A DNA stretch of 215 nt from a phage, in sequence record X15721.1. One strand, given 5' to 3'. Of the stretch, positions 36 to 215 are shown one piece after another (the stretch's first letter is position 1; every line of letters starts with the position of its first letter). The notes beneath the pieces were generated by a model that saw only the letters and a program-made list of their open reading frames with translations, ran no database searches and was not told the origin of the DNA. Position numbers and translations under genes: made by a program.

Positions 36-123
36 CCAAGTCCTTCAGCCGCTTAAATAAAAGGCTGCCGCACTCCCGGTTAGATGCCTGCCCAGTGTAA
101 GATACCCGATAAACTAGGAACGT

Positions 124-144
124 GGAAGGCGTTAGCCGCCTTCC
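124..144 (+). other. GC-rich inverted repeat: 8-bp stem GGAAGGCG / CGCCTTCC with 5-nt loop TTAGC; probable RNA stem-loop in the 5' leader of the downstream ORF, function unassigned
   Basis: Read directly: 124-131 ggaaggcg pairs perfectly with 137-144 cgccttcc (6 G-C and 2 A-T pairs), loop 132-136 ttagc. It is followed by ccctcctgctaagccc, not a T-run, and on the - strand by acgttcctagtttatc, so it is not a canonical rho-independent terminator. It ends 17 nt before the SD. Confidence 0.5.
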
Positions 145-160
145 CTCCTGCTAAGCCCAA

Positions 161-167
161 AAAGGAG
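161..167 (+). promoter_or_regulatory. Shine-Dalgarno ribosome-binding site for the ORF starting at 176
   Basis: AAAGGAG at 161-167, strongly complementary to the 16S rRNA 3' end, followed by an 8-nt spacer (ttacagcg) and ATG at 176. The spacing is within the canonical range. Confidence 0.55.
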
Positions 168-175
168 TTACAGCG

Positions 176-215
176 ATGTTAGGTGCCGTTGTTGGTGGCA
201 TTGCCTCAGCCTTAG
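176..215 (+). CDS. 5' end of an ORF that continues beyond the window; hypothetical hydrophobic (probably membrane) protein, N-terminus MLGAVVGGIASAL
   Basis: ATG 176-178 is the first start codon after the in-frame TAA at 152-154. AAGGAG core at 162-167 sits 8 nt upstream. The frame (atg tta ggt gcc gtt gtt ggt ggc att gcc tca gcc tta g..) is open to position 215. Of the other + frames here, one has TAG at 180-182 and the other has no start codon. The peptide is Gly/Ala/Val/Ile-rich with GxxxG-like spacing (G3, G7, G8), consistent with a transmembrane helix. Product not recognised; only 13 codons visible. Confidence 0.55.
   Translation, partial: MLGAVVGGIASAL

Follow-up and report, generated by a model that had tools for sequence, protein, structure and literature searches.

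The question raised by positions 161–215 of this phage sequence (record X15721.1) is whether a strong ribosome-binding site (RBS), followed by an open reading frame (ORF) with an uncharged and Gly/Ala-rich beginning, marks a small membrane peptide or the start of a larger and already familiar gene. The whole stretch of DNA that was analysed, here called the window, is 215 nucleotides long, and in a megablast search against annotated phage records it was matched over its entire length by coliphage alpha3 (Microviridae, Bullavirinae, Alphatrevirus). Every aligned position was identical (195/195), and the overall megablast identity of 91.5% is explained by one gap alone, of 20 nt, located between positions 99 and 100. 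Positions 1–60 on the plus strand encode the C-terminal end of G, the major spike protein, comprising 19 codons (GTIATTQVIHEYQVLQPLK) and a TAA stop at 58–60, and this end is identical to that of alpha3 gene G (NC_001330 4396–4959), whose product matches the Pfam family Phage_G. Gene H follows directly downstream on the same strand, in the F-G-H order of the Bullavirinae, and the window thus runs from the end of G through the G-H spacer into the start of H as in alpha3. The same layout of G followed by H on one strand was found in alpha3, NC3, St-1, phiK, WA45, ID62, NC29, phiX174, ID2 and G4, and the annotated coding sequences in the Bullavirinae records compared are on the plus strand throughout. 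At the edges of the window the sequences GGTACC (1–6) and CTTAG (211–215) are present, which we take to be a KpnI site and a DdeI site (CTNAG), respectively; their presence at both ends suggests that the record was delimited by a restriction fragment, as in early fragment-based sequencing.

The translation start itself is compact. AAAGGAG at 161–167 is followed by a spacer of 8 nt, TTACAGCG (168–175), and by ATG at 176–178. Translation of 176–214 gives MLGAVVGGIASAL and base 215 opens codon 14, and by identity to alpha3 the segment 176–215 (plus strand) constitutes the first 13 codons plus one base of gene H, which encodes the DNA pilot or minor spike protein. A TAA at 152–154, read from the sequence, closes the H frame upstream, and ATG, GTG and TTG are all absent between this stop and position 176; ATG 176 is therefore the only possible start. 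The arrangement AGGAG-N5–10-ATG occurs once in the window against an expectation of 0.02, and was encountered in 4 of 200 dinucleotide-preserving shuffles. The Shine-Dalgarno (SD) sequence AAGGAG at 162–167 (plus strand) is conserved in alpha3-like phages and coincides with the ribosome_binding_site of H annotated at 194–199 in GenBank M25640. From this annotation, together with the gene record of alpha3, it follows that the RBS, the start codon and gene H were already annotated. The sequence-only reading had proposed precisely this RBS, spacer length and start codon, and in that respect it was accurate.

The 40 nt of H coding sequence, the RBS and the order G-spacer-H are identical in alpha3 and the window, and while the window is without 20 nt of the upstream spacer, there is no difference from alpha3 within 161–215. 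The setting differs in phiX174 and G4, where H begins 8–10 nt after the G stop and the RBS is found inside the end of G (in phiX174, GTGAGGTGATTT-ATG). The alpha3-type phages, in contrast, have a spacer of 115–135 nt with an origin of replication between G and H, and a different and stronger SD, AAGGAG.

What the start codon at 176 leads into can be read from the intact relatives. From the window's ATG, alpha3 H (NP_039599.1; NC_001330 5095–6087) extends for 330 codons, and the ORF has 325–337 codons in nine other members of the Bullavirinae. Profile scans were made with alpha3 H, the 13 residues of the window being too short on their own; the Pfam model begins at about residue 18–19. Alpha3 H matched PF04687 Microvir_H (Microvirus H protein, pilot protein) with 328.5 bits (E = 6e-98, cut-off 22.7) and, over its full length and from residue 1, PHROG 1471 (phrog_1471, "pilot protein for DNA ejection") with 523.7 bits (E = 4e-157); its first 40 residues alone matched positions 1–35 of PHROG 1471 (E = 3.9e-8). 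The H protein of phiX174 belongs to the same family, is about 55% identical over the body of the protein, and its coiled-coil tube (PDB 4JPP, 4JPN), the central domain, aligns to alpha3 H residues 159–292. The window itself holds 13 codons, and it is by identity to alpha3 that its own H would be about 330 residues long and contain the coiled-coil domain of the tube at its centre. Several GenBank records (M25640, X60322, DQ085810) already provide an annotated sequence of alpha3 gene H, and the H start at 161–215 is accordingly known, an ordinary annotated gene start and no new small membrane peptide.

Conservation of the N-terminus was assessed in ten phages belonging to three clades (alpha3, phiX174 and G4), in all of which the motif M-[LFI]-G-[AS]-[VI]-x-G-G-I-[AG]-S-[AS]-L was retained. 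The first 13 residues of H are MLGAVVGGIASAL in alpha3, NC3, WA45 and NC29, MIGAVVGGIASAL in ID62, MLGSIIGGIGSSL in St-1 and phiK, MFGSIAGGIASAL in G4 and MFGAIAGGIASSL in ID2, while those of phiX174, MFGAIAGGIASAL, differ from the window at 3 of the 13 positions, all conservatively. Besides the initiator Met, residues G3, G7, G8, I9, S11 and L13 are invariant in the ten phages, each being encoded by two to three different codons, and over the 13 codons the variable sites are distributed as 6, 3 and 12 among the first, second and third codon positions. Invariant residues written in varied codons, together with this third-position variation, reveal purifying selection and therefore a real reading frame and a functional motif. 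The earlier call of a coding sequence is hence well founded, with a frame conserved in ten phages and uninterrupted by any early stop in alpha3. The identity of the gene, its RBS, its start codon and the conservation of the motif under purifying selection are direct observations of the present analysis.

The composition of this N-terminus had been described as uncharged and rich in Gly and Ala with a GxxxG spacing, as inconsistent with a Sec-type n-region, and as suggestive of a membrane-interacting, glycine-zipper-like start. These descriptions agree with the full-length protein: the 13 residues in the window are all uncharged, the first charged residue of alpha3 H is K20, and residues 3–23 of alpha3 H contain one strict GxxxG (G3–G7) and nine more small-xxx-small pairs. 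Residues 1–19 form the most hydrophobic 19-residue stretch of alpha3 H, a maximum which supports an interaction with the membrane and from which we infer insertion itself. The mean Kyte-Doolittle value of this stretch is 1.54, and the classical cut-off for a transmembrane segment is about 1.6. Being just below the cut-off, the call of a transmembrane helix is borderline. When three H N-termini were compared with Pfam at E ≤ 10, no glycine-zipper family was obtained and Microvir_H was the only family returned.

Taken as a whole, we hold it to be very nearly certain that 161–215 constitutes the start of gene H in an alpha3-type microvirus, with its initiation region and 13 opening codons, encoding the protein of the pilot tube, with an N-terminus that is most likely a membrane anchor. 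In this proposal, the AAGGAG located 8 nt before the ATG would recruit the ribosome to a DNA pilot protein of some 330 residues, of which each virion would contain about 10–12 copies. Upon infection, ten H molecules would exit the capsid and assemble via their central coiled-coil domains into a tube spanning the cell envelope, through which the circular ssDNA genome would enter the cell. The uncharged, Gly/Ala/Ser-rich N-terminus would most likely provide for helix packing through small-residue, GxxxG-like contacts, and the N-terminal helix of about 19 residues would insert into the host membrane, thereby anchoring the decameric conduit for DNA at one of its ends; published genetics also implicate the N-terminus in the assembly of the particle and in attachment to the host. 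The structure and function of the tube are taken from the literature, the function as a DNA-translocating tube being established for the phiX174 homologue, and that residues 1–19 insert into a membrane and pack as helices is the most likely reading of the sequence. [quoted passage not shown] The solved crystal structures of H start at about residue 143, the coverage given in PMC7354561 being residues ~151–271, and the N-terminus is outside them. In the literature the N-terminal segment of H is a predicted transmembrane or anchor segment, and reviews of the tube structure propose both termini as membrane anchors.

Another explanation is that the N-terminus of H acts mainly within the virion or procapsid, in the incorporation of H during assembly and in the exit triggered by attachment, rather than spanning a membrane as an anchor, in which case its many Gly and Ala residues would keep the segment flexible or let it pack against the coat and spike proteins. 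We consider this unlikely, but it is an alternative of some substance. Mutations in the N-terminus of H were reportedly linked to assembly and attachment defects by Young et al. in 2014, to judge from the title of that work, and by the same token membrane anchoring may be neither the sole nor the main function of this segment. The borderline hydrophobicity of residues 1–19 points in the same direction, as does a 2026 saturation-mutagenesis preprint, in which a hydrophobic N-terminal region is described and effects on viral assembly are reported besides an interaction with host membrane lipids. A role in the particle is, however, compatible with membrane insertion as well, and both the anchoring by the two termini proposed in the tube reviews and the final location of H and the genome at the cytoplasmic membrane (PMC7354561) argue against confining the N-terminus to the virion. 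Membrane anchoring remains the preferred reading.

The long spacer which separates H from G in the window is a known type of element in its own right. Positions 61–175 (plus strand), 115 nt in the window as compared to 135 nt in alpha3, align end to end with the F-G spacer of G4 (NC_001420), and by this homology represent the known, G4-type complementary-strand origin that is dependent on DnaG primase. In the GenBank record of G4 an "RNA primer of replication" is annotated at 3970–3997 and an "origin of compl. strand synthesis" at 3998. The architecture of hairpin I, the CTG start and the loop motif GCGNNAGC are shared between the G4 origin (NC_001420 3970–3998) and the window, and the upstream hairpins of G4 are homologous to those of intact alpha3. 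The two differ in location (F-G in G4, G-H in the window), in the loop (GCGAAAGC in G4, GCGTTAGC in the window) and in the 20 nt of upstream hairpins that the copy in the window is without.

Hairpin I of the origin extends over 124–144 (plus strand) and is composed of GGAAGGCG (124–131), the loop TTAGC (132–136) and CGCCTTCC (137–144). Its 8-bp stem was present in both the minimum free energy (MFE) and the centroid folds, and the pairing is preserved in full in 8 phages, among which G4 has one A-T pair replaced by C-G in a compensatory change. Inside hairpin I, at 129–136, is the "mini-hairpin" motif GCGTTAGC, which PMC13037366, citing Sims, Capon & Dressler 1979, assigns to hairpin I in the origins of St-1 and alpha3; SSB-dependent priming by DnaG is likewise reported there for alpha3, St-1 and phiK with reference to the same 1979 study. 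On the 3′ side of hairpin I, the CTG at 148–150 corresponds to the primer start of G4, and the whole arrangement is collinear with that of the primer and origin annotated in G4. The reverse complement of the G4 primer region (3970–3997) is AGTAGGGACGGCGGCTTTCGCCGTCCAT, and by homology to its position a putative primase RNA primer in the window, 5′-AGGAGGGAAGGCGGCUAACGCCUUCCAC-3′, would be templated by 122–149 (minus strand) and start opposite T149 of the CTG. Hairpin I was also considered as an intrinsic terminator and rejected as such; no T-run follows the stem and the terminator scan was empty.

The homology between the G4 F-G spacer and the alpha3 G-H spacer does not end at the origin, but extends past the CTG via AAGCC(C)AAAAGGA to the next ATG (window 148–178; G4 3996–4022). 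Since it runs through the SD to the following start codon, the origin and the downstream RBS look like one block, and this block appears to have been moved as a unit, being placed upstream of G in G4 and of H in the alpha3-type phages. The same continuity could be taken to mean that AAGGAG is conserved mainly as a part of the ssDNA origin, its role as the SD of H being secondary. This is improbable in our estimation, as in G4 the block precedes the ATG of gene G at a similar spacing and is RBS-like in both phages, and as ID62 and NC29 have moved GGAG by 2 nt and yet keep an SD, which fits a translation signal and not a fixed element of the origin; AAGGAG is, moreover, called an RBS in GenBank. 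We therefore retain AAGGAG as the translation signal of H. It can be added that CTCCT at 146–150, where the primer would start, can pair with AGGAG (163–167) within this SD. The resulting 5-bp helix was part of the MFE folds, was partial in one centroid fold and was absent from another, and it could reflect a weak masking of the RBS in the mRNA or be a coincidence.

The 20-nt gap at the junction 99/100 lies outside 161–215 and affects the upstream part of the origin. The missing sequence, GGGCAGACCGAGCCGTACGG, is present in three independent alpha3 records (X60322/NC_001330, M25640 and DQ085810) and conserved in all relatives including G4. In the alpha3 fold, CTGCCC pairs with GGGCAG, and this pair is conserved in 8 phages (alpha3 and 7 relatives); in the window CTGCCC is found at 88–93 (plus strand) as an orphan 5′ arm, its partner GGGCAG being absent. 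The missing 20 nt correspond to the 3′ arms of this hairpin and of its enclosing helix, and the upstream hairpins are consequently not intact in the window. These would presumably be hairpins II and III in the nomenclature of G4. No microhomology was detected at the gap junction, and the junction sequence had zero matches in the viral, genome and metagenome contig collections. The gap more likely goes back to nucleotides left out of an early sequence record, and we give only a slim chance to a viable alpha3 stock having truly lost these 20 nt.

The spacer also contains ORFs that do not appear to be genes. ORF 84–182 (plus strand) is a mechanical one that is missing from intact alpha3 and St-1 and was discarded. 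On the minus strand, ORF 80–160 has 26 codons for amino acids in the window and 135 in intact alpha3 and St-1 (L001 1273–1680 and L006 1073–1480, both on the minus strand), where it runs antisense through gene G. It was rejected as a gene on account of its inconsistent open length among relatives, the stop-free antisense stretch reaching 79 aa in NC3, 106 in NC29, 225–228 in ID62 and WA45 (228 in WA45) and at most 47 in G4, and it looks like a by-product of codon usage in G and not a conserved gene. A search of Rfam with a permissive E-value returned DUF2815 RNA at 13 bits (cut-off 41.2) and a fragment of the RMST lncRNA, both of which are at chance level and were rejected.

A stand-alone small hydrophobic peptide starting at 176 and possibly controlled by an antisense RNA, the candidate reading first proposed for this start as a small membrane stress peptide, a holin-like protein or a type I toxin, has the composition of 13 residues to speak for it (uncharged, Gly/Ala-rich and GxxxG-like) and can be set aside with hardly any reservation: the same ORF is a large and well-annotated protein of 330 codons in alpha3 and 325–337 in nine relatives, whereas such peptides typically are below 60 aa, it belongs to Microvir_H and phrog_1471, neither strand of the 215-nt window holds a single promoter-like or terminator-like site of the sort expected from an antisense partner, and the window had no match in the plasmids and E. 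coli genomes searched, which are the expected home of such loci. The likeness to type I toxins and to small membrane proteins with a glycine zipper or GxxxG is confined to the uncharged start rich in small residues, G3xxxG7 and the small-xxx-small periodicity. In contrast to them, H is without a matching profile of that kind and without antisense signals, and its 330 aa include a long soluble coiled coil; as a component of the virion, it is delivered to the cell from outside. The multi-pass transporter that had been mentioned as another possible product likewise gives way to the DNA pilot or minor spike protein H.

The lesson of the locus is a negative one: when a short fragment shows a strong RBS followed by a hydrophobic ORF start rich in Gly and Ala, this combination does not count as evidence that a small membrane peptide is encoded. 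With regard to the origin upstream of H, should the 20-nt gap be a real deletion, the upstream hairpins would be dispensable for the initiation of the complementary strand in vivo, and hairpin I together with the CTG would suffice.
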